From: an uncultured Thermoplasmatales archaeon
GTDB lineage: Archaea > Thermoplasmatota > Thermoplasmata > Lutacidiplasmatales > UBA184
NCBI GenBank assembly: GCA_964500245.1
Contig: CAZCNZ010000115.1
Span: 1-36,911, forward strand
Direction of reading: 5' to 3'
DNA length: 36,911 bases
Shown here in pieces: positions 10,167 through 36,911 of the stretch; positions within the stretch are counted from its first letter, which is position 1, and every line of letters begins with the position of its first letter. A program made the position numbers and the translations under genes. The notes beneath the pieces were generated by a model that did no database searches, was not told where the DNA came from, and worked only from the letters and a program-made list of their open reading frames with translations.

Positions 10167-11585
10167 TCAGGGCCGGAAGTTCGGGCCGCCGGGGGGCTCG
10201 TTCCCCTCAGTGGGTCCCATCGGGGGCGGGGAGAGGGACGCGGCGGGGGGAACGCCGTTCGGCCAGCTCTCACCGTACCCGCCGACAAGTCCCTTCTGGG
10301 AGTTGCGCCGGGCGTAGGAGCGCCACTCGATCACACCGACCGTTCCGACGACGACCACGACCGCGACTCCGATGAGCGCCACGAGCAGCCCGCCGATGGG
10401 GGCTGCCGCCCCCGCGCCGTTGCAGCCGTTGCGCAGGCAGTTCGCTTCCGCGTTCGCCTGGCTGACCGACATCGGCTGGGCGAGGACCGACCCACCCGGA
10501 GTGCTCGTCGCGGCAGGGGTTGCCTCGCTCACCGGTGCCGCGAGCGCGTCCACGGACGCGTCGTTGGCCCCGAAGGTCGAGGAGGCGGCCGTCACGTCAG
10601 GGCTGCCCGACCCGGAGCTCAGGAAGAGCGTCTCCGAGGAGATGCCCGCCGAGCCCATCGACACCGAGTCGTAGTCGTGCGTCGCTGTGCCGAAGAGGTC
10701 GAAGTCGTGCGGGATCCAGAGGAACAGGTCGTAGTTGTCGAAGACTCCCTGAACCTGCAGGACGATCGCCATTCGCGGCTTGTGGTCCACGAACACCGTT
10801 TCCGAGACCAGGTAGACCTTCATCCCGGTGAGGTTCACGGTGCCGGTACCGCTCAGCGAGCCGGACTTCGACCCCGACCCGGACCCCGTGGTCCCGTTGA
10901 ACCCTTGGTCGGCCCAGGAGTAGCTCACGGTCCAGGAGGCCGAGGGGCTTCCCGTCGCCGTGGAGTTCCACACGTTGATCCCGGTGAGGTTGAGCGGGAT
11001 CAGTCCGAGGGACGGACTGAACGACGTCGATGCCTGACCGACGCCGAGGACGTTCAGCGACGCGCTCGCAGTGTGGCCGCCCACCGTCTTGCTGATCGAC
11101 TCGGCGATTGAGGCGTTGATCGAGGCCGAGGCGTTCTCGATCCCGAGAGCGGGGACGGGCTGACCGTTCACGTAGACCACCGACTGGTTGGTCACGTTCG
11201 CGAAGCCCACGTCCGACTCGGTCGCGTGGTAGTGGTAGTTCACCGTGGAAACTGCGCCGGTGTAGGTCACGGCGATCGTGATTCCCACGGTCCGCTGCTC
11301 TTCCACCATCCACGTATTCGCGACGGTGGGGGTGACGGTGATCACGACCGTCCAGCCGAACGAGGAAGTCCACGTGAAGGTCCCCGTGTCGGACTCGAGA
11401 GAACCATTGAACCATCCCTGCCCACCATACGCCCACTGGGTCGGGGTCGTCGAATCGGCTGACGCCGCGCTCGAGACCGGCGCCGCGCTCGCGGCACCCG
11501 AGAGCGCCGAGAGAGCCACGAAGGCCAGGAGCATCGCGACACCTGCCGTCGCGGCCCACACTTTCATTCCGCCGATTTTCGCCAT
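10167..11585 (-). CDS. Secreted, membrane-anchored surface glycoprotein, unknown family
   Basis: The N-terminal signal/TM is KVWAATAGVAMLLAFVALSALSGAASA. At least 10 N-x-S/T sequons and Ser/Thr/Gly-rich stretches are present. The C-terminal TM GGLLVALIGVAVVVVVGTVGVI is followed by a ~60-aa cytoplasmic tail. Confidence 0.7.
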   Translation of the reverse strand: MAKIGGMKVWAATAGVAMLLAFVALSALSGAASAAPVSSAASADSTTPTQWAYGGQGWFNGSLESDTGTFTWTSSFGWTVVITVTPTVANTWMVEEQRTVGITIAVTYTGAVSTVNYHYHATESDVGFANVTNQSVVYVNGQPVPALGIENASASINASIAESISKTVGGHTASASLNVLGVGQASTSFSPSLGLIPLNLTGINVWNSTATGSPSASWTVSYSWADQGFNGTTGSGSGSKSGSLSGTGTVNLTGMKVYLVSETVFVDHKPRMAIVLQVQGVFDNYDLFLWIPHDFDLFGTATHDYDSVSMGSAGISSETLFLSSGSGSPDVTAASSTFGANDASVDALAAPVSEATPAATSTPGGSVLAQPMSVSQANAEANCLRNGCNGAGAAAPIGGLLVALIGVAVVVVVGTVGVIEWRSYARRNSQKGLVGGYGESWPNGVPPAASLSPPPMGPTEGNEPPGGPNFRP

Positions 11586-18140: not shown

Positions 18141-19088
18141 GTGATACGCATAGATACGTCAATGACTCTTCACCGACGCTGGCGCCTCGACTCGCGTCGG
18201 GGTATTAGCGAGATCATCGCGGTGATCTTCATTCTCGCGCTCACGATCGTGGCGGGCGCGATCCTGTGGACGTTCCGGGTCTACACTCCCCCCGACCCGC
18301 CGAGCCTGAGCATCCTCATCCGGTCCGGGGGTTCTAATCCCGTCTGGGGCGACCCGACCGATTGCCAGCCGCAGGGCTACAACACCACCATGTACCCGAT
18401 GTGGGGGAATGCGCTCAACACGTGGGAGTCCAAGTGGAACGATCAGTGCGAGAACAGCGTCACGGGAAACTTCTCGACGCTGAACTCGACCCAGTTCATC
18501 ATCTCCGCGCACTCGCCATCCTCTATCTCGCTGAGCCAGATCGAGTTCACGTTCGTTTGCAACAACGCGAGTTCCTCCGGAGGTCGGACCATCCTCGTCA
18601 ACGGGACGCTCGCCTCGATGGTTTGGTTCCCGGGCTATTCCTCTCAGCCGGCGGCGGGCGCTCCCTATCTCGGCTACTGCGGGAACTTCAATGCCGCGAG
18701 CCTGACCGCGGCGAACGGGATCTACTACAACCGTCTGGGGCTGTTCGTGCCGATCCGTCAGGGCGTGAACACCCTCGAGGACGGGGACACCTTCATCCTG
18801 TACATCCACAACGGAGGGTACCCTCTCGACTTCGAATGCCCGGTGAACACCTGGGCGCACGACCTCTACTACTTCAACGGCGAGAACAGGACCAACGGCT
18901 GTCTGCACGTCTACTCGAACGGGACGGCGATGCCGATCCCGCAGCTCGACTACGACGACTACCACGGGGCTCCCCCCTGGTGCTTCCAAAGCGTGAACGC
19001 CTGCACGATCTACCTGACCTACACGGGCAACCCCCAGACGACGCTCGCCGCGATCTCGGTCTACACCCTCGCGCCCCCCAAGGCGTAG
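18141..19088 (+). CDS. Archaeal type IV pilin-like (class III signal peptide) Cys-rich secreted glycoprotein
   Basis: The N-terminus RRGISEIIAVIFILALTIVAGAILW resembles the archaeal pilin/DUF1628-type prepilin signal. The mature part has about 10 Cys and at least 7 N-x-S/T sequons. The likely true start is ATG 18162. Confidence 0.65.
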   Translation: MIRIDTSMTLHRRWRLDSRRGISEIIAVIFILALTIVAGAILWTFRVYTPPDPPSLSILIRSGGSNPVWGDPTDCQPQGYNTTMYPMWGNALNTWESKWNDQCENSVTGNFSTLNSTQFIISAHSPSSISLSQIEFTFVCNNASSSGGRTILVNGTLASMVWFPGYSSQPAAGAPYLGYCGNFNAASLTAANGIYYNRLGLFVPIRQGVNTLEDGDTFILYIHNGGYPLDFECPVNTWAHDLYYFNGENRTNGCLHVYSNGTAMPIPQLDYDDYHGAPPWCFQSVNACTIYLTYTGNPQTTLAAISVYTLAPPKA

Positions 19089-19152: not shown

Positions 19153-19647
19153 ATGCCTCGTATGTCCCGGCGCCAGACCCGTCAGTTTCTGACGATCTGT
19201 GTTGCCATCGCCGCGGCGATCGTGGTCGTCTTGCTCGTACTGATCGCCGCGGGCATCCTGGTCCTTCCGGCGAAGTCGCCCACCCCGGTGACCATCACAT
19301 CCGTCACCCTAGAGATCCGTCAGGGCAACACGTCCGGCGGGATGCCTTGGTTCGGGCCGAGTACCGTCGTCTACAACCAGACCAACAGCAACTACCCGCT
19401 CCAGGTCTCGCCCGGGGGAACATGGAAGGTCGTCTGGGTGTTCGACAACTTCGACAATCACTTCCACAACATCACCCAGGTATTGCCCGCGACGCCGTTC
19501 TCGCTGGGAGCGACGCAGCCGAACCTCCCCTACGAGCTCCTGCCGAGCGAAGAGGACTGCGCGCTCGCGATTCTTCCGGTGGCTCCCTCGACGCCCGGGG
19601 CGAGCTACCACGTGACCATCGTGGTGGTCGCGCAGACCATCTCCTGA
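19153..19647 (+). CDS. N-terminally membrane-anchored extracellular beta-rich protein, unknown function
   Basis: A charged N-terminus is followed by the helix FLTICVAIAAAIVVVLLVLIAAGILVL and then a ~115-aa domain with N-x-S/T sequons. Confidence 0.55.
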   Translation: MPRMSRRQTRQFLTICVAIAAAIVVVLLVLIAAGILVLPAKSPTPVTITSVTLEIRQGNTSGGMPWFGPSTVVYNQTNSNYPLQVSPGGTWKVVWVFDNFDNHFHNITQVLPATPFSLGATQPNLPYELLPSEEDCALAILPVAPSTPGASYHVTIVVVAQTIS

Positions 19648-30550: not shown

Positions 30551-32329
30551 GTGGCGCGGATTGCCATCCTACTTCGGGACCGATGTCACCCGAAGGAGTG
30601 TCAGTGGGAGTGCCAGGCCTACTGCCCGCCGGTCCGCATGGGGCAGGAATGCATCGTCGAAGGGCCTGACGGTCGACCGATAATCTCCGAGAGTCTCTGC
30701 ATCGGCTGCGGGATCTGCGTCCACAAGTGCCCGTTCGACGCCATCAAGATTCTCAACACTCCCGAGGCCAACGAGGCGGAGATCGTCCACCGGTACGGGT
30801 ACAACGGCTTTCGGCTCTACCGCTTGCCCATTCCTCCCCCCCAGGGGATCACGGGACTTCTCGGCCCGAACGGGACGGGGAAGTCGACCGCGCTCCGGCT
30901 CCTCGCGGGCAACGACGTGCCGAACCTCGGGGATTACGAACACCCCGGGGAATGGTCGAAGGTTCTCGAGCACTACCGGGGCACCGCGCTCCACGCGCAC
31001 TTCGAGCGGGTCGCGAAAGGCGAACTTCGCAGCGTGGTGAAGCCGCAGTACGTGGACCGTCTCGCGGACGAGTCGGTCACGGCCCGAGAGTTCGTCGCGT
31101 CGGCCGGGGGCCGCGCCGCGTCGATCCTCGAAGAGGTCGGGCTGGGGGGACGCGGGGACCGGCGTCTCACGGAGTTGTCGGGCGGGGAGCTCCAGCTCGC
31201 CGCGATCGCGCGCACGCTCGCTACGGACGCCGACCTCTACTTGATCGACGAGCCGTCGAGCTACCTCGACATCGTCCACCGGCTCGAGGTCGCGCGTCTC
31301 CTTCGCCGGCTGGGGGAGACGAAGAGCGTGCTCGTGGTCGAGCACGACCTCGGCCTCCTCGACTATCTCGCCGACCAGGCGCATCTCCTCTATGGCGAGT
31401 CGGCCGCGTTTGGGGTGATCAGCCACCCGATCCCGATGCGCTCTGCGATCAACACCTACCTCACGGGTTACCTGAAGGATGAGAACGTTCGGTTCCGTAC
31501 CGAACCGGTACGGTTCGTGGCGCATCCCCCGAAACCGGCGGTTCGCCAGAACGTCCTCGTGGAGTTCCCCGCGCTCGAGAAGCAGTTCCCCGAGTTCCAT
31601 CTCGCCGTGAGTGCCGGATCCCTCGCGAAGGGGGAGACGGTCGGCGTGGTCGGGCCGAACGCCACGGGAAAGACAACGTTCGTCCGGATGCTGGCGGGGG
31701 TGGAGGTCCCCACGAGCGGAACTCCGCCCCCCGGCGTCACCGTCAGTTACAAGCCCCAGTACCTCAAGGCGACGCAGGCGGCCAGCCTTCGGGAGCGGGC
31801 GAACGCGCTCGCCGGGGACCCATCGTTCGACGGGAAGCTGTTCGAGCGCGAGCTCGTCCCGGGGCTTCACCTCGATGAAGTCCTCGACGTCGCACTCCCC
31901 GACCTCTCGGGAGGCGAGCTCCAGCGGGCCGCGGTCGCCCTCGCGCTCGCTCGGCCCGCGACGCTCTACCTCCTCGACGAGCCGTCCGCCTACCTCGATG
32001 CCGACGAGCGGATGTCGATGGCGCGCCTTCTCCGTCGCCAGGTCGAACGGCAGGCGGTGAGCGCGCTGGTGGTGGACCACGACGTCTATTTCTTGGACCT
32101 CGCATGCGATGCGCTCATGACGTTCCGCCCCGACGCGCCCGACGGTTCCCGAGGACGCGGCGACGGTCCGTTTCCGATGCGGGAAGGGATGAACCGACTG
32201 CTCCGAAGTGTCGACATCACCTTCCGCCGGGATGCGGAGACCCTTCGCCCCCGCATCAACCGGGAAGGTTCGGTCCTGGACCGGGAACAGCGGGCGAAGG
32301 GGGAGTATTACTATGAAGCCGCCGCGTGA
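30551..32329 (+). CDS. ABCE1 (RNase L inhibitor homologue) ribosome-recycling ATPase
   Basis: The N-terminal double 4Fe-4S domain is CHPKECQWECQAYCP...CIGCGICVHKCPFDAI. Two ABC cassettes follow (GPNGTGKST / LSGGELQ; GPNATGKTT / LSGGELQ). It has a GTG start. Confidence 0.92.
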   Translation: MARIAILLRDRCHPKECQWECQAYCPPVRMGQECIVEGPDGRPIISESLCIGCGICVHKCPFDAIKILNTPEANEAEIVHRYGYNGFRLYRLPIPPPQGITGLLGPNGTGKSTALRLLAGNDVPNLGDYEHPGEWSKVLEHYRGTALHAHFERVAKGELRSVVKPQYVDRLADESVTAREFVASAGGRAASILEEVGLGGRGDRRLTELSGGELQLAAIARTLATDADLYLIDEPSSYLDIVHRLEVARLLRRLGETKSVLVVEHDLGLLDYLADQAHLLYGESAAFGVISHPIPMRSAINTYLTGYLKDENVRFRTEPVRFVAHPPKPAVRQNVLVEFPALEKQFPEFHLAVSAGSLAKGETVGVVGPNATGKTTFVRMLAGVEVPTSGTPPPGVTVSYKPQYLKATQAASLRERANALAGDPSFDGKLFERELVPGLHLDEVLDVALPDLSGGELQRAAVALALARPATLYLLDEPSAYLDADERMSMARLLRRQVERQAVSALVVDHDVYFLDLACDALMTFRPDAPDGSRGRGDGPFPMREGMNRLLRSVDITFRRDAETLRPRINREGSVLDREQRAKGEYYYEAAA

Positions 32330-32900
32330 GGCCGGCGCCGCGCGGCGATCGGCCGCGCGAACGACCCGGGAAGGGATCTACCACGACCGGGGCCGGCTCT
32401 CGTACACGGTGATTGGCGTGTACGCGTTCCTGATCGTCCTCCTGTTCTACGTCGCCTCGCAATCCGGCCATGCGTTCTGGGCGATCGTGGTCGTTCTCCT
32501 CCTGTTCGTGTTCTTCTTGGTCCGATACATCTCCACGACCTACTCCCTGGGCGACACGCACCTCCGGGCATGGCGGTTCTTCGGAAACCGCAGGATCCGT
32601 CTCGACTCGGTGAACCGGATCGAGTACGGGAGCATGCGCGATCTCGCCCCGACCGGGTTCTTCGGGTCGTGGGGCTGGCGCGGTCGCATGTGGAGCTCGG
32701 AGATCGGCCAATTCGACGCGTTCTACACCGATGCGGCGCACGGCCTGCTCGTGAGCGGAGAAGGGGTCCCGATCTACATCAGCCCCATCGATGTCGACGA
32801 GTTCGCCCGCGAGCTCTCCCGCCGGGTCCGCTCCTACAAGGGCTCGCTCGCGGTCGATGTGGGCGACCCCCGGAGCGCGCCGCCCGCGCACTCCGACTAG
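32313..32900 (+). CDS. Membrane protein with bacterial-PH-like (bPH) domain
   Basis: Two TM helices (YTVIGVYAFLIVLLFYV; FWAIVVVLLLFVFFLV) are followed by FFGSWGWRGRMWSSEIGQFDAFYTD...VPIYISPIDVDEF. The ATG at 32313 overlaps the ABCE1 3' end by 17 nt. Confidence 0.5.
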   Translation: MKPPREAGAARRSAARTTREGIYHDRGRLSYTVIGVYAFLIVLLFYVASQSGHAFWAIVVVLLLFVFFLVRYISTTYSLGDTHLRAWRFFGNRRIRLDSVNRIEYGSMRDLAPTGFFGSWGWRGRMWSSEIGQFDAFYTDAAHGLLVSGEGVPIYISPIDVDEFARELSRRVRSYKGSLAVDVGDPRSAPPAHSD

Positions 32901-32925
32901 GGCATCGGGCGCAACGCCCGCTCGG

Positions 32926-34413
32926 TCAGTACTGCGGGAGCGAGGGATCAACGCGCTGAGCCCACGCGTTGATTCCTCCGCGCAGGGTTCGAACGTTCGA
33001 GAAGCCCAGGTCGAGGAGGAATCGAGTGGCCTCCGCGGAGCGGATGCCGCTCCGACAGTAGACGACGAGCTTCGAGGCCCGAGTGAGTTCGTCCACCCGC
33101 TCGGCAAGTTCGCCTTTCGGGATCAGGTGGGCTCCGGGGAGGTGGGCGATCGCCCACTCTCCGGGCTCCCGGACGTCGACCAGGAAGGGGGGCTCCTCCG
33201 ACTCGAGTTCGGCGTGCAGCGCTTCCGGTTCCACGCGAGGGACGTTGTCCCGGGCCGCCGCGGCTTCCGGAGTCGGGACGCCGCAGAAGGCGGGGTAGTC
33301 GATGAGCCCCTTCTGCGTCGCGTGCGCGGAGCAGAGCACGCAGTGCGGATTCTTGCGGATCCGAAGCTCGCGGAACTTGAGCGCGAGGGCGTCGAAGAGG
33401 AGCAACCGCCCAACGAGGGAGTCGCCCTGCCCGAGGATGAGCTTCACGGTCTCCGTCGCCTGAAGGACCCCGATCAGTCCGGGGAGGACGCCGAGAACGC
33501 CGGCCTCGGCGCACGACGGCACGAGGTCCGGTGGGGGCGGTTCGGGGTAGAGGCACCGGTAGCAGGGGCCGTGACGAGCGTCGAAGACGCTCACCTGGCC
33601 CTCGAAGCGGTAGATGGAGCCGTAAACGCTCGGTTTCTTCAACAGTACCGTCGCGTCGTTGACGAGGTAACGGGTCGGGAAGTTGTCGGTGCCATCCAGG
33701 ACCACGTCGTACGGCGCGATGATGTCGAGCGCGTTCTCGGAGGTGAGTCGAGTCTCGTGCGCGACAACCCGGGTCCCCGGATTGAGCCCTTCGAGGCGCT
33801 CCTTCGCTGCGACGAGCTTGGGGCGGCCAACGTCCGACGTCGAGTAGAGGACCTGCCGCTGCAGGTTCGATAGGTCGACCGAGTCGAAGTCGACGAGGCC
33901 GATCTCCCCGACTCCCGCGGCGGCGAGATAGAGGGCGGCCGGGGCTCCGAGTCCCCCCGCTCCCACCAGGAGGACCTTCGCGCGGCGGAGCTTCCGCTGT
34001 CCGGCCACGCCGACCTCAGGCAGGAGGAGATGACGGCTGTACCGGCGGAGATCGTCGGTCGAAAACGCTTCGACCGCGGTGTCGGCCGACTCAGAACGCG
34101 AAGCCGGACGGAGCGGTCCCCTCGCCCCGGCGGGCGCTCCCCCGGCGACGGCAGGGACGATGGAGACGACGTCCCCCTCCTTCAGGGGGGTTGCTTCGCG
34201 GTCGAGGAATCGAATGTCCTCGTCGTTCAAGTAGACCGTGACGAAACTGCGGAGGCGGCCTTCTGGGGTGAAGAGGTGCCGCTTGAGCGCCGGATTCGAG
34301 TCGGCCAGAGAGCGGATGACCCCCCCGACGGTGCTGCCCTCGAGGGCGAGTTCGGCAGCCCCGCCGGCGAACGACCTCAGCGGTGTGGGGATCTTGACGG
34401 TCGCCTTTGGCAT
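32926..34413 (-). CDS. Tri-domain fusion: CysO/MoaD-like ubiquitin-fold sulfur carrier (aa 1-92, ends AVAGG) + MoeB/ThiF/MoeZ-type E1 adenylyltransferase + C-terminal rhodanese
   Basis: The Ubl is IPTPLRSFAGG...FVTVYLNDEDIRFL...GDVVSIVPAVAGG. The E1 carries RYSRHLLLPEVG, LLVGAGGLGAPAALYLAAAGVG, DLSNLQRQ, CYRC...SCAEAGVLG...HCVLC. The rhodanese carries LVDVREPGEW...VVYCRSGIRS. A GGGGAGGG SD-like element lies 7 nt upstream of the ATG. Confidence 0.85.
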   Translation of the reverse strand: MPKATVKIPTPLRSFAGGAAELALEGSTVGGVIRSLADSNPALKRHLFTPEGRLRSFVTVYLNDEDIRFLDREATPLKEGDVVSIVPAVAGGAPAGARGPLRPASRSESADTAVEAFSTDDLRRYSRHLLLPEVGVAGQRKLRRAKVLLVGAGGLGAPAALYLAAAGVGEIGLVDFDSVDLSNLQRQVLYSTSDVGRPKLVAAKERLEGLNPGTRVVAHETRLTSENALDIIAPYDVVLDGTDNFPTRYLVNDATVLLKKPSVYGSIYRFEGQVSVFDARHGPCYRCLYPEPPPPDLVPSCAEAGVLGVLPGLIGVLQATETVKLILGQGDSLVGRLLLFDALALKFRELRIRKNPHCVLCSAHATQKGLIDYPAFCGVPTPEAAAARDNVPRVEPEALHAELESEEPPFLVDVREPGEWAIAHLPGAHLIPKGELAERVDELTRASKLVVYCRSGIRSAEATRFLLDLGFSNVRTLRGGINAWAQRVDPSLPQY

Positions 34414-34450
34414 CGTTCGACCCTCCCCGACGAGACTCTTAGGCTCTTCC

Positions 34451-34924
34451 TTACCCTCGGACCACTAACGGAGACGAGGGACGCTTCCCCGTCACGGACA
34501 GGGGGACCTCGCGGAAGGTCGCGGAGTCCGGCTCGAGTTCGAACGCGGCGACGGCGGGGGTCGCCGACGCCGTGACCGCCAGGACGAGGTAGGTGTACCA
34601 GGGCCACGCATGCTCCTGGTCGAACTGCGACGGGCGGGCCGGATGGTCGGGATGGGAATGGTAGAATCCGACCACCGCTCGGCCCGTCCCCTCGAGGTTG
34701 CGTTCCAGTTTTCTAAGTTCCTCGGGAGGAATGAGGAACCGGCGACGGCGCTCACCGTCGAACACGTTCCCCGCTGGTTCAAGGGCGAGGATCGTTCGAC
34801 CCGTGGTTCCCTCGGGCTCCGGGACCGCGCCGACAAGGAAACCGCAGCACTCTTCCGGGTACGTCGTCCGTCCGTGCGCCTGCATCTCGGCGAGGAGAGA
34901 CGCGGGGAGGATCACCGACTTCAC
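34451..34924 (-). CDS. mec: JAMM/MPN+ metalloprotease (Mec / HvJAMM-like)
   Basis: The JAMM motif is complete: EECCGFLVG, then GFYHSHPDHPARPSQFD (H-x-H-x7-S-x2-D). Length is 157 aa. It overlaps the cysM stop by 4 nt. Confidence 0.85.
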   Translation of the reverse strand: MKSVILPASLLAEMQAHGRTTYPEECCGFLVGAVPEPEGTTGRTILALEPAGNVFDGERRRRFLIPPEELRKLERNLEGTGRAVVGFYHSHPDHPARPSQFDQEHAWPWYTYLVLAVTASATPAVAAFELEPDSATFREVPLSVTGKRPSSPLVVRG

Positions 34925-35895
34925 GACCGCTCCCTCTCGTGGGGGTCGTGTCCTCCGTCCGGAAGGATCGTCACCACGACGGAACCCTCGGCAGAGCGGC
35001 CAACCTGAACGGCCGCCCAGACCGCCGCTCCGGCGGACGACCCGACCGCGAGCCCTTCGGCCCGAGCGAGCCGGAGCTGCATCTCGAGGGCGTCCTCCGT
35101 CTCCACCCGGACTGTCTCGTCCACGAGATGATCGTCGTACGTCGAGGGTCGGAGCGCAGTCGGAAGGTGCTTCAGCCCCTCGATTCCGTGGATTGGTCCC
35201 GGTGGCTCGACGCCGATGACGCGGACGGAGGGATTGCGCTCCTTGAGGTAGCGGCTCACGCCCGAGATCGTCCCCCCCGTTCCAACGCCCGCGACGAAGT
35301 GGGTGACCCGGCCCGCGGTCTGCTGCCAGATCTCGGGACCCGTGGTTGCGTAGTGGGCTCGCGGGTTAGAGGGATTGTTGTACTGGTCCGGGTAGAAGTA
35401 TCGGCCCGGTTCGGCCGCGGCCCTTCGATGTGCCTCGCGCTGGGCGCCGTCCGTCCCCTCTGAGGGGTCCGTGAACACCACGCCGGCTCCAAACGCCCGG
35501 ATTCGGGCCACGCGCGAGGGGTGAGCGTTCGCGGGAAGGATGATCTCTACCGGGAATCCAAGGCGAGCTCCCAGCATGGCATACGCGACGGCGGTGTTCC
35601 CGCTCGATGCATCCATCAACGTCCGACCCTCGCCCAATCGGCCGCCGGCGATCGCATCGAGGACGATCCCTCGTGCCGTGCGGTCTTTCACCGATCCCGT
35701 CGGGTTGAGGTGCTCCGCCTTCGCCAGGAGTTCGAACCGGCCCCCGCTCTCCTGAACGATCGACGGCAGCGGGACCAGCGGGGTGTTACCGATGGCCGCC
35801 ACGATCGGGTCTAGGAGCGGAGCCCGGCGGGTCAAGGGGGTGCGGAGGGCCGACCGCGGTCCCGATGTCAGCGGAGTTGAATCAAGTGGGTACAC
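34921..35895 (-). CDS. cysM: PLP-dependent cysteine synthase, CysM/CysK family
   Basis: The PLP-lysine motif is EHLNPTGSVKDRTA. It is followed by SSGNTAVAYA and GVGTGGTISG. It has a GTG start, and the N-terminus is uncertain. Confidence 0.85.
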   Translation of the reverse strand: MYPLDSTPLTSGPRSALRTPLTRRAPLLDPIVAAIGNTPLVPLPSIVQESGGRFELLAKAEHLNPTGSVKDRTARGIVLDAIAGGRLGEGRTLMDASSGNTAVAYAMLGARLGFPVEIILPANAHPSRVARIRAFGAGVVFTDPSEGTDGAQREAHRRAAAEPGRYFYPDQYNNPSNPRAHYATTGPEIWQQTAGRVTHFVAGVGTGGTISGVSRYLKERNPSVRVIGVEPPGPIHGIEGLKHLPTALRPSTYDDHLVDETVRVETEDALEMQLRLARAEGLAVGSSAGAAVWAAVQVGRSAEGSVVVTILPDGGHDPHERERS

Positions 35896-36518
35896 CGCAT
35901 TCCTCCTCGGCCGATTGAATCGACCAGGTCCACCCCGGTCTGACCGAGGAGGGCCTCGGTGAGGTGCTTGTCGAAGACATCGCAGAGGAGGAACGGGTGC
36001 GTCATAGCGCTGTGGCGAAAGACACAGTTCGACCGGGTGATCCGGATCGAACCGTCGGGCGCCCGGTCAGTGGTGCAGCGGAATCCGAGGCGGTTCAGCG
36101 AGCGGACCACGTTCTCGGCTCGCTCTTCCGGGGTCCCCGTCTTCGGGACCTCCTTCACGACCTCGTGCGCCATCCGCTCGGCGGCGTCGGCGAACAGCGC
36201 GCTCACGTACCCCTCGCCTTCGCGGGCGAGGAGCTCGTCCACGACGGTGTCGAGAATCAGGTCGTACTTCTTCGGGAACAATTCCTGAGCGGAGCTCGTA
36301 AGCACGAAGCGCTTCCGGGGACGGCCGACCCCTTCTCGACGGAACGACGGCACGACGAGACCCCGTTCCTCGAGGCGTCCCAAGTGGCCGCGAGCAGCGC
36401 TCTCCTGGATCCCGAGCTTCCGAGCAAGGTCCCTTGCAGTTCGGGGAGCGATCGCGAGTTCCTCGAGGATCCGGCCCCGGGTTCCCTCGAGCAGTTCCGC
36501 CTCGGCCATCACTCCCAT
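35868..36518 (-). CDS. wHTH transcriptional regulator with four-Cys C-terminal domain (SufR-like)
   Basis: The N-terminal ArsR/DeoR-like wHTH is RILEELAIAPRTARDLARKLGIQESAARGHLGRLEERGLV. The C-terminal Cys pattern is C-x16-C-x13-C-x29-C. The gene is divergent from sufC. Confidence 0.65.
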   Translation of the reverse strand: MGVMAEAELLEGTRGRILEELAIAPRTARDLARKLGIQESAARGHLGRLEERGLVVPSFRREGVGRPRKRFVLTSSAQELFPKKYDLILDTVVDELLAREGEGYVSALFADAAERMAHEVVKEVPKTGTPEERAENVVRSLNRLGFRCTTDRAPDGSIRITRSNCVFRHSAMTHPFLLCDVFDKHLTEALLGQTGVDLVDSIGRGGMRCTHLIQLR

Positions 36519-36526
36519 CGGTTACC

Positions 36527-36542
36527 CCTAGGACGCACTAGG
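36527..36542. promoter_or_regulatory. Inverted repeat CCTAG-N6-CTAGG between the regulator start and its TATA-like box
   Basis: Read directly from the sequence. It lies 9-24 nt upstream of the regulator ATG (36518), so it is a candidate operator. It is short and could occur by chance. Confidence 0.25.
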
Positions 36543-36548
36543 ATTTAC
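36543..36548 (-). promoter_or_regulatory. TATA-like box (GTAAAT on minus strand) upstream of the regulator gene
   Basis: It lies 25 nt upstream of the ATG at 36518. Confidence 0.4.
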
Positions 36549-36561
36549 ACACCACGCCATG

Positions 36562-36570
36562 CTTAAATAA
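36562..36570 (+). promoter_or_regulatory. TATA-like box CTTAAATAA upstream of sufC
   Basis: It lies 24 nt upstream of the ATG at 36594. Confidence 0.5.
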
Positions 36571-36593
36571 CGGTATCGGCTCGTACGACTCCG

Positions 36594-36911
36594 ATGCCGA
36601 TCGAAACGCTGAGCGGACCCCATACCTTGGTGGTCGAGGACCTCCATGCCGAGGTCGCCGGAAAGGAGATCTTGAAGGGGGTGAGCCTGACCCTCAAGAG
36701 CGGGGAGCTGACCGCCCTAATGGGGCCGAACGGCTCGGGAAAGAGCACGCTCGCCTACGCGCTCATGGGCCACCCGAAGTACAAGGTGACTCGGGGCAAG
36801 GCGCTCCTGGACGGACAGGACCTTCTCAAGCTCAGCGTCGACCAGCGGTCGCGCGCGGGCCTCTTTCTCGGCTTCCAGTATCCCCAGGAGGTCTCGGGGC
36901 TCTCCCTTTCG
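36594..36911 (+). CDS. sufC: Fe-S cluster assembly ATPase SufC (5' part; runs off the window)
   Basis: My own translation is [102 protein letters not shown]. This is the typical SufC N-terminus, and the frame is open to the window end. Confidence 0.9.

Follow-up and report, generated by a model that had tools for sequence, protein, structure and literature searches.

The subject of this analysis is a cluster of four genes near one end of a 36,911-nt contig from an uncultured Thermoplasmatales archaeon (GenBank assembly GCA_964500245.1, contig CAZCNZ010000115.1, positions 1 to 36,911; hereafter the window). All four lie on the minus strand, and they encode a SufR-like regulator, a CysM-like enzyme dependent on pyridoxal phosphate (PLP), a JAMM metalloprotease, and a protein in which a ubiquitin-like (Ubl) sulfur-carrier domain is joined to an E1-type adenylyltransferase and a rhodanese (Rhd). 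At a probability of roughly 0.6, we read them as a CysO-type protein-thiocarboxylate cysteine-synthesis module in a Thermoplasmata archaeon, co-regulated with the SUF system for iron-sulfur (Fe-S) cluster assembly. The open reading frame (ORF) list places the four genes where an earlier reading of the same sequence (the original prediction) had put them, and the features that matter here are as follows.

35868..36518, minus strand: SufR-like winged-helix regulator, 216 amino acids (aa; Pfam HTH_20/MarR_2/HTH_5)
34921..35895, minus strand: CysM-like PLP-dependent cysteine synthase, 324 aa (PALP, 3e-75)
34451..34924, minus strand: JAMM/MPN+ metalloprotease, 157 aa (Prok-JAB, 5e-22)
32926..34413, minus strand: Ubl-E1-rhodanese tri-domain protein, 495 aa (Pfam ThiS + ThiF + Rhodanese)
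34138..34413, minus strand: CysO-like Ubl sulfur-carrier domain, residues 1-92, ending in AVAGG (ThiS family, 4e-15)
34060..34137, minus strand: variable linker, predicted to be disordered, residues 93 to ~118, the proposed JAMM cleavage region
33274..34059, minus strand: E1-type adenylyltransferase domain, MoeB/MoeZ/ThiF-like (ThiF, 1.9e-84)
32929..33249, minus strand: rhodanese sulfurtransferase domain with catalytic Cys453 in YCRSGxRS (Rhodanese, 3.6e-20)
36519..36593, no strand: divergent control region between the regulator gene and sufC, 75 bp (sequence read directly)
36594..36911, plus strand: 5' part of sufC (Fe-S assembly ATPase), cut by the window end (SufC TIGR01978, 5e-37)

The junctions are as tight as originally described. 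The regulator gene runs 28 nt into cysM, whose GTG start follows a GGAGG at a distance of 6 nt; cysM and the JAMM gene overlap by 4 nt (GTGA); and a 37-nt gap separates the JAMM gene from the fusion gene, with GGGGAGGG 7 nt before the fusion ATG. Every catalytic motif quoted earlier was found in the sequence (NPTGSVKDR, HSHPDHPARPSQFD, SCAEAGVLG, two CxxC pairs, CRSGIRS and AVAGG), and Pfam sets the domain limits of the fusion protein at residues 6-92 (ThiS), 125-358 (ThiF) and 396-486 (Rhodanese). All four activities of the mycobacterial CysO/CysM/Mec/MoeZ pathway, the component list originally proposed for the operon, are present.

We surveyed related loci at one genome per species (~20 Thermoplasmata and ~60 bacterial loci), mapping the window proteins onto each. 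The order cysM-JAMM-[Ubl-E1-Rhd] is kept in ~75/80 loci across two domains of life, an arrangement far beyond chance, and cysM is directly adjacent and co-oriented in ~90% of loci.

Carrier domain, activating enzyme and protease

The original prediction described the Ubl as CysO-like, and its best solved relative is indeed CysO of Mycobacterium tuberculosis (Mtb; 3dwg_C, 1.7e-17). Next comes 4n6e_B, a ThiS/MoaD-family protein and apparently the CysO of Amycolatopsis in a solved complex with BexX, a 2-thiosugar enzyme. SAMP1 and MoaD trail far behind these two. The Ubl falls below the NCBIfam cut-offs for SAMP1 (49.9 bits, cut-off 60) and for moaD_arch (39.4 bits, cut-off 49.5). No MoaE or molybdenum cofactor gene occurs among the window genes, the surveyed loci not having been scanned specifically for moaE, so that within the window the domain does not look like a MoaD with a moaE-type partner.

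The Ubl end, [AS][IVL]AGG, is invariant in 80/80 loci. In fused forms the Gly-Gly (GG) is internal and is followed by a linker, of fewer than 10 to more than 40 residues across loci and unconserved in sequence until the E1 start, and then by the E1 itself. An AlphaFold model built from a 36-sequence alignment has three confident domains and a predicted confidence score (pLDDT) below 50 for residues 89-130.

Fourteen bacterial loci have a separate carrier gene, its product ending in GG plus a tail of 1 to ~15 residues (GGR, GGV, GGNGDR, GGTDFVNW and others).

Loci with split Ubl and E1 genes: L024, L027, L035, L037, L045, L048, L050-L052, L054, L055, L057, L060, L062

The carrier and E1 ORFs share a reading frame in 14/14 of these loci, with 1-4 in-frame stops between them (chance ~2e-7), which suggests from sequence that the split forms arose by repeated gene fission from a fused ancestor. 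The covalent link between carrier and E1 is dispensable, because these 14 relatives carry the carrier as a separate gene. Exposure of the GG by proteolysis, on the other hand, is needed in the fused and in most split forms, because adenylation by E1, ThiF and MoeB enzymes requires a free C-terminal carboxylate. The co-encoded JAMM protein is most likely the protease responsible, being the obvious candidate, and the fusion of GG to E1 through a disordered linker implies JAMM-dependent release of the carrier.

Maturation of this kind has parallels. QbsD reportedly trims QbsE in thioquinolobactin synthesis and HcyD is said to trim HcyS in Wolinella homocysteine synthesis, while HvJAMM1 reportedly cuts a SAMP1-MoaE fusion. 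In the QbsE/QbsD and HcyS/HcyD pairs, as here, the GG is masked, by extra residues or a fused partner, a cut exactly behind it has to precede adenylation, and the JAMM gene stands in the operon. What differs is that the masking partner here is the activating enzyme, set behind a linker of variable length, and that the same JAMM protein would be expected to release cysteine as well. A fused carrier that gains activity only after a cut behind its GG is also known from the MoaD-MoaE protein MoaX of Mtb (PMC4326299).

The E1 scores above the cut-off of the MoeB model PRK08762 (485 bits, cut-off 449) and below that of the MoeZ model PRK07878 (481 bits, cut-off 647). Bacterial MoeB/MoeZ models give it 480-500 bits, against 322 for archaeal UbaA (cut-off 450). 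Its invariant features are a GxGGLG nucleotide loop, C284/C287, C301 and C358/C361; those of the rhodanese are C453, G456, R458 and S459.

The JAMM metal site (E...HxH...S...D) is complete, and E25, H89, S90, H91, S99 and D102 are kept in at least 90% of 77 orthologues. The best Protein Data Bank (PDB) match is 2kcq (3e-25), a stand-alone prokaryotic Mov34/MPN protein, presumably from Salinibacter ruber, a species of the 2006 type-4c list discussed below. The desampylase model scores the JAMM protein below its cut-off (74 versus 130 bits). Directly after the catalytic glutamate lies a Cys-Cys pair (residues 26-27, 34846-34851, in EECCG), also present in at least 90% of the 77 orthologues, which could serve redox control or bind an additional metal.

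A profile search with the Ubl returned 1320 clusters at E<=1e-10, mostly fragments and without taxonomy. Three members of this CysO-like family (P0241, P0249 and P0254) are 170-190 aa long with two Ubl-matching stretches, and are possibly tandem carriers.

Cysteine synthase, regulator and suf linkage

The PLP enzyme belongs to the CysK/CysM family, in keeping with its original assignment as a cysteine synthase rather than a threonine synthase. Its best NCBIfam model is cysM TIGR01138 (324 bits, under the 394-bit cut-off), and we rejected a threonine synthase or threonine dehydratase identity, for which the models give at most 90 bits. The PLP lysine is K70, and the TSGNT and GTGGT loops are intact.

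As to this enzyme, the original match with the mycobacterial pathway was overstated. Its best PDB matches are Salmonella/E. coli CysM (1e-65), and Mtb CysM is not among its 60 best PDB matches. Aligned with an Mtb CysM sequence confirmed as 100% identical to 3dwg_A, it shows 33% identity, compared with 41% to Salmonella CysM. A short tail replaces the Mtb C-terminal extension, and a motif invariant in the clade, HG[IL]EGLKH, places K242 where Mtb CysM has Arg220 and Salmonella CysM its aligned arginine. Lysine fills that position in 70/72 sequences, the remaining two being the Mtb and Salmonella references. By alignment and tree, the enzyme represents a clade distinct from Mtb CysM and is not its orthologue. 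O-phosphoserine is only a putative substrate of this enzyme, because lysine replaces Arg220, the O-phosphoserine-binding determinant of Mtb CysM.

The regulator connects the operon to suf. The window closes with 318 plus-strand bases, beginning at 36594, that code for the N-terminal part of SufC; this gene start at the window edge had escaped the original prediction. sufC is divergent from the regulator gene in 15/15 archaeal loci with a regulator, and it is followed by sufS-sufB in all relatives with enough flank, with sufD and sufU further on. Between the two genes, a 43-nt conserved block (36542-36584) contains TTATTTAA at 36563-36570, 23 nt from the sufC ATG. The block, ACGAGCCGATACCGTTATTTAAGCATGGCGYGGTGTGTAAATC, is almost unchanged in the window and in L002, L004, L005 and L009, whose regulators are 70-80% identical to that of the window, and occurs in variants in L006-L008. 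To judge from this conservation, it probably comprises twin promoters and an operator. Comparison among loci brought it to light, the 75-bp intergenic region holding no inverted repeat, and a scan of 32700-36911 for bacterial-type promoters and terminators found none, its models being bacterial and uninformative for an archaeon.

Against the SufR model TIGR02702 the regulator scores 40.2 bits (cut-off 178.8), in an alignment that spans model positions 14-208 of 208, and among its relatives are proteins that JGI annotates as 'suf operon transcriptional repressor'. Neither the 17 loci nor the 35 homologues compared show any change at C165, C179 or C209. The spacing of these cysteines, 14 and 30, compares with 13 and 28 in Mtb SufR Rv1460, in which C203/C216/C244 are the Fe-S ligands (PMC6034842). 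Like SufR of cyanobacteria and Rv1460, the protein combines an N-terminal winged helix with three C-terminal cysteines, and its gene lies divergently beside a suf operon with the control region between. It differs in its weak similarity, in its archaeal host and in a transcript that would run on into cysteine-synthesis genes, and cluster binding here is putative. A Foldseek search of the regulator model against the PDB gave generic winged-helix matches only (Phr, MarR and PadR; TM-scores ~0.3), with no SufR structure among them. These features make an archaeal SufR-like protein, common to suf and to the cysteine genes, the best reading of the regulator. For that reason the cluster is not self-contained, as it had first been called: the regulator has its most conserved partner in the divergent suf operon and is missing from bacterial versions of the cluster.

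Two further arrangements tie the module to Fe-S assembly. In Ca. Sysuiplasma the regulator gene, on the minus strand, stands divergent upstream of a co-directional string, sufC-sufU-cysM-[Ubl-E1-Rhd]-sufB-sufD-sufS-JAMM (L016 5164-14342, L020 1028-9694), a gene order that puts the module inside the suf operon. In Vicinamibacteria-type loci (L026, L028 and L040-L044; for example L041 9669-11414) the fusion gene is followed within ~60-700 nt by genes for an Rrf2-family (IscR/SUF-regulator-like) protein and the cysteine desulfurase IscS; this gene order connects the module with Fe-S assembly once more, and independently. The repeated SUF/ISC linkage points to a cysteine supply co-regulated with Fe-S assembly.

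Distribution and relation to known systems

The Thermoplasmata loci are 57-75% identical to the window fusion protein. The bacterial loci match it over its full length, including the Ubl, at 51-60% identity; they are mostly Acidobacteriota (Terriglobia, Bryobacterales, Vicinamibacteria and Blastocatellia), with one Gemmatimonadota and one Chloroflexia metagenome-assembled genome (MAG). The operon had been presented as archaeal, and it does sit in an archaeal genome, as ABCE1 synteny and uniform codon usage indicate; it is not an archaeal speciality, the same operon and fusion being present in ~60 bacterial species. The predicted carrier route would thus be common among Acidobacteriota as well as among uncultured Thermoplasmata of soils and acid mines.

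Trees of CysM and of E1 agree in their major clades, and the genes therefore travel as a unit. The main Thermoplasmata clade is monophyletic (100/100 bootstraps), while the placement of the Ca. Sysuiplasma pair is split between monophyly of all archaea (47-49% bootstrap) and a grouping with bacteria (44%). On these trees there has been at least one inter-domain transfer. We favour a bacterial origin of the operon because the E1 fits bacterial MoeB/MoeZ models better than UbaA and because there is a precedent in Thermoplasma, where bacterial-type E1s replaced the ancestral one (Makarova & Koonin). Two loci, L040 ('Bifidobacteriaceae') in the Vicinamibacteria-type clade and L068 ('Bordetella sp.') in the Bryobacterales clade, hold those positions in both trees and probably come from mis-assigned MAG bins.

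Protein-thiocarboxylate cysteine biosynthesis in M. tuberculosis was reportedly worked out by Burns et al. in 2005 and O'Leary et al. in 2008, and to our knowledge the carrier-protein route has been demonstrated in mycobacteria only. The Mtb CysO-CysM-Mec+/MoeZR system has the same four activities: a GG-ending Ubl, a PLP-dependent CysM, a JAMM hydrolase and an E1 that carries a rhodanese at its C-terminus. Here, by comparison, the Ubl forms the N-terminal part of the E1-rhodanese, from which it has to be freed; the gene for the E1 lies inside the operon, moeZ being elsewhere in Mtb; CysM belongs to another clade, as described above; the regulator is SufR-like rather than AosR/SigH; and the host is an archaeon.

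A closer counterpart is found in Table 1 of Iyer, Burroughs & Aravind 2006 (PMC1779556), whose row 4c groups a ThiS/MoaD-like Ubl, an E1 with rhodanese, a JAB protein and a cysteine synthase in Solibacter, Salinibacter, Chloroflexus, Rubrobacter, Pseudomonas and Rhodopseudomonas. The mycobacterial version stands in row 4d of that table, where Mtub type 4d includes ClpS and an alpha-helical-domain protein, neither of which is in the archaeal operon. The gene set and inferred logic of type 4c match the present cluster, which is co-directional with its E1 fused to rhodanese, and the bacterial loci of our survey (from Solibacteraceae, Bryobacterales, Chloroflexia and others) likewise fall under this type. 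Row 4c itself lists no archaea and mentions no ThiS-like Ubl fused to E1-rhodanese (PMC1779556); the SufR-like regulator and suf linkage are further traits that set the archaeal version apart. In our analysis the operon belongs to this 2006 class and would most likely work like the mycobacterial pathway. It differs from the described systems in its carrier-activator fusion, archaeal host, SufR-like regulator and embedding in suf; in the open-access literature we found no description of an archaeal version or of the Ubl-E1-Rhd fusion.

The SAMP/UbaA/HvJAMM1 system of Haloferax volcanii likewise combines Ubl, E1 and JAMM in an archaeon, and in both cases the E1 may serve several Ubls. In the operon, by contrast, Ubl, E1 and JAMM all fall under the SAMP1, UbaA and desampylase cut-offs, the E1 carries a rhodanese and scores higher on bacterial MoeB/MoeZ models, and the trio is linked to cysM, with nothing to suggest protein conjugation.

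Proposed cysteine route and its alternatives

Known archaeal cysteine routes comprise the tRNA-dependent SepRS/SepCysS pathway, sulfide-dependent O-acetylserine and O-phosphoserine sulfhydrylases, and transsulfuration. In the route we propose, the first step would be a cut in the linker of the 495-aa precursor, behind Gly92, for which the co-encoded JAMM protein is the likeliest protease; it would separate the E1-rhodanese from a carrier of 92 residues with Gly-Gly at its end. The E1 would then adenylate the C-terminal glycine of the carrier, and a thiocarboxylate would form via a persulfide on rhodanese Cys453 or from sulfide. On the CysM-like enzyme, O-phosphoserine or O-acetylserine would yield an aminoacrylate to which the thiocarboxylate adds, and an S-to-N acyl shift would leave carrier-Gly-Gly-Cys. 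Hydrolysis of the carrier-Cys bond by the JAMM protein would free cysteine and recycle the carrier. Finally, the bidirectional control region shared with the divergent sufC-sufS-sufB, under the control of the SufR-like product of the first gene, would co-regulate cysteine supply with the cysteine-consuming assembly of Fe-S clusters. Gene content, motifs, likeness to CysO, the conserved order, fusion and GG, linker disorder and suf linkage are what we observe; the rest we infer, namely each chemical step, which protease cuts, which serine derivative and which sulfur donor are used, and the ligand and targets of the regulator.

A number of observations weigh against this route. If SufS or IscS supplied the rhodanese persulfide, the pathway would be futile, with cysteine spent to make cysteine, and sulfide, thiosulfate or another persulfide must therefore be assumed as the sulfur donor. 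The PLP enzyme is only 33% identical to Mtb CysM, with lysine for Arg220 and no Mtb-type C-terminal extension, and the CysM, MoeZ, SAMP1 and desampylase NCBIfam equivalog scores are all under their cut-offs. The regulator reaches just 40 bits on the SufR model, whose cut-off is 179, and its AlphaFold model is poor around Cys209, so that clustering of the three cysteines cannot be judged from it. Three loci (L005 6802-9446, L009 6806-9443 and L012 6833-9452) have regulator, JAMM and fusion genes and no cysM at the locus, and the Ubl/E1/JAMM part therefore probably also acts in other sulfur-transfer roles. A Thermoplasmata MAG (L058 7992-9215) encodes an E1-rhodanese (407 aa, 66% identity) that lacks a Ubl and has no cysM or JAMM gene nearby. 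MoeZR, which activates CysO, is dual-purpose in mycobacteria and serves MoaD too (Voss et al. 2011, PMC3227635); after cleavage, the E1 here probably also serves other carriers. The neighbours of the L058 gene look, from their translations, like housekeeping genes (for example a thermosome-like chaperonin).

Several of these points would be expected if the locus were instead a general-purpose sulfur-carrier or small-modifier system, the strongest of the alternatives, which we nevertheless regard as unlikely. The E1-rhodanese would then be the main Ubl activator (for molybdopterin, tRNA thiolation and possibly conjugation), the JAMM protein would mature or recycle Ubls, CysM would be an ordinary sulfide- or thiosulfate-using cysteine synthase B, and carrier-based cysteine would be absent or one of several outputs. 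The three loci without cysM between regulator and JAMM, the orthologous Ubl-less E1-rhodanese among housekeeping genes in L058, the greater closeness of CysM to the Salmonella/E. coli enzyme than to Mtb CysM, the service of Mtb MoeZR to both MoaD and CysO, and the replacement of the ancestral Thermoplasma E1 by bacterial-type E1s (Makarova & Koonin) all fit such a system. The Ubl, however, is closest to CysO, with its SAMP1 (49.9 bits) and MoaD (39.4 bits) scores below cut-off; the window genes include no moaE, ncs6 or other acceptor gene; and the adjacent, co-oriented cysM of ~90% of loci in two domains, with cysM and E1 trees sharing their major clades, also speaks against a general-purpose system.

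Direct relay of sulfur to Fe-S assembly appears highly improbable. In such a relay the carrier thiocarboxylate or rhodanese persulfide would feed SufBCD/SufU, SufS or IscS would load the rhodanese, and CysM would have a side role. It would account for the position of the module between sufU and sufB in Ca. Sysuiplasma, its divergence from sufC-sufS-sufB in all other Thermoplasmata loci and the Rrf2-IscS genes that adjoin it in Vicinamibacteria. Yet the majority of the bacterial loci (~50) have no Fe-S assembly genes nearby, the cysteine desulfurase SufS, the established SUF sulfur source, is present, and the near-universal CysM partner is left unexplained; we also know of no precedent for a Ubl thiocarboxylate feeding SUF.

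We give similarly little credence to a different thiol product, made by a CysM homologue that uses another activated amino acid or by a carrier that feeds a thio-metabolite pathway, as with BexX/CysO and QbsE. No characterised enzyme falls in the CysM clade, which has an invariant HG[IL]EGLKH motif to itself, and this is consistent with the idea; 4n6e_B, if it is CysO with BexX, would show that CysO-type carriers can be shared with other pathways. Against it, the best family is cysteine synthase B with the PLP lysine and the TSGNT and GTGGT loops intact, and the surroundings of the module hold no conserved genes for biosynthetic tailoring.

Beyond the CysO-type cysteine module as proposed here, a more ambitious version can be put forward, which is conceivable but doubtful. 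The fused module would be a dedicated, oxidation-tolerant cysteine line for Fe-S biogenesis in archaea and, independently, in some Acidobacteriota, with the SufR-like protein as an Fe-S-sensing switch that turns on SUF and the thiocarboxylate-based sulfur capture together, and with JAMM cleavage as a licensing step that sets carrier and activator at exactly 1:1. If true, this would be a fourth cysteine route in Archaea, wired into the Fe-S stress response. The carrier-activator fusion is in any case a natural 'Rosetta stone' that makes the role of the JAMM protein directly testable, and the analysis corrects database names, which currently read MoeB, MarR-family/ArsR-family regulator and 'rhodanese-like domain-containing protein'.

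In its sequence context, the cluster is resident in an archaeal chromosome. The neighbouring gene encodes ABCE1/RLI (Fer4_RLI plus two ABC domains in Pfam), a marker of archaea and eukaryotes, and third-position GC in the operon genes (0.79-0.84) lies inside the range of their neighbours (0.78-0.91). A bacterial PH-domain (bPH) gene and ABCE1 follow the cluster in many Thermoplasmata MAGs from independent studies. Each of the 120 best-matching relatives (69-88% identity) shares the three-domain make-up of the fusion protein, with those that are named labelled 'Thermoplasmata archaeon', and the 90% cluster of the window protein itself includes a member so labelled. We therefore rejected bacterial contamination or a chimeric contig, a reading with next to no probability, on synteny (25 bp to the bPH gene, with ABCE1 beyond, recurring in many MAGs), codon composition equal to that of the neighbours and the 90%-cluster label, with the 100/100 bootstraps of the main archaeal clade also against it, even though the closest relatives outside Thermoplasmata are bacterial (51-60% identity).

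Elsewhere in the window the genes have heterotroph functions (thiolase, hydroxyacyl-CoA dehydrogenase, acyl-CoA ligase, urocanase, prolyl oligopeptidase and an FtsX/MacB transporter), with no sulfur genes among them. Four ORFs (1134-2588 and 10167-11585 on the minus strand, 18141-19088 and 19153-19647 on the plus strand) have coding-like codon composition and no Pfam match at E<=1e-5. The bPH_5 membrane-protein gene (32208-32900, plus strand) runs towards the fusion gene, with 25 bp left to the fusion stop codon, and is syntenic in most Thermoplasmata loci. Its longest ORF overlaps the 3' end of ABCE1 by 122 nt, which makes a start further downstream probable; in L001 the called gene is 195 aa long.

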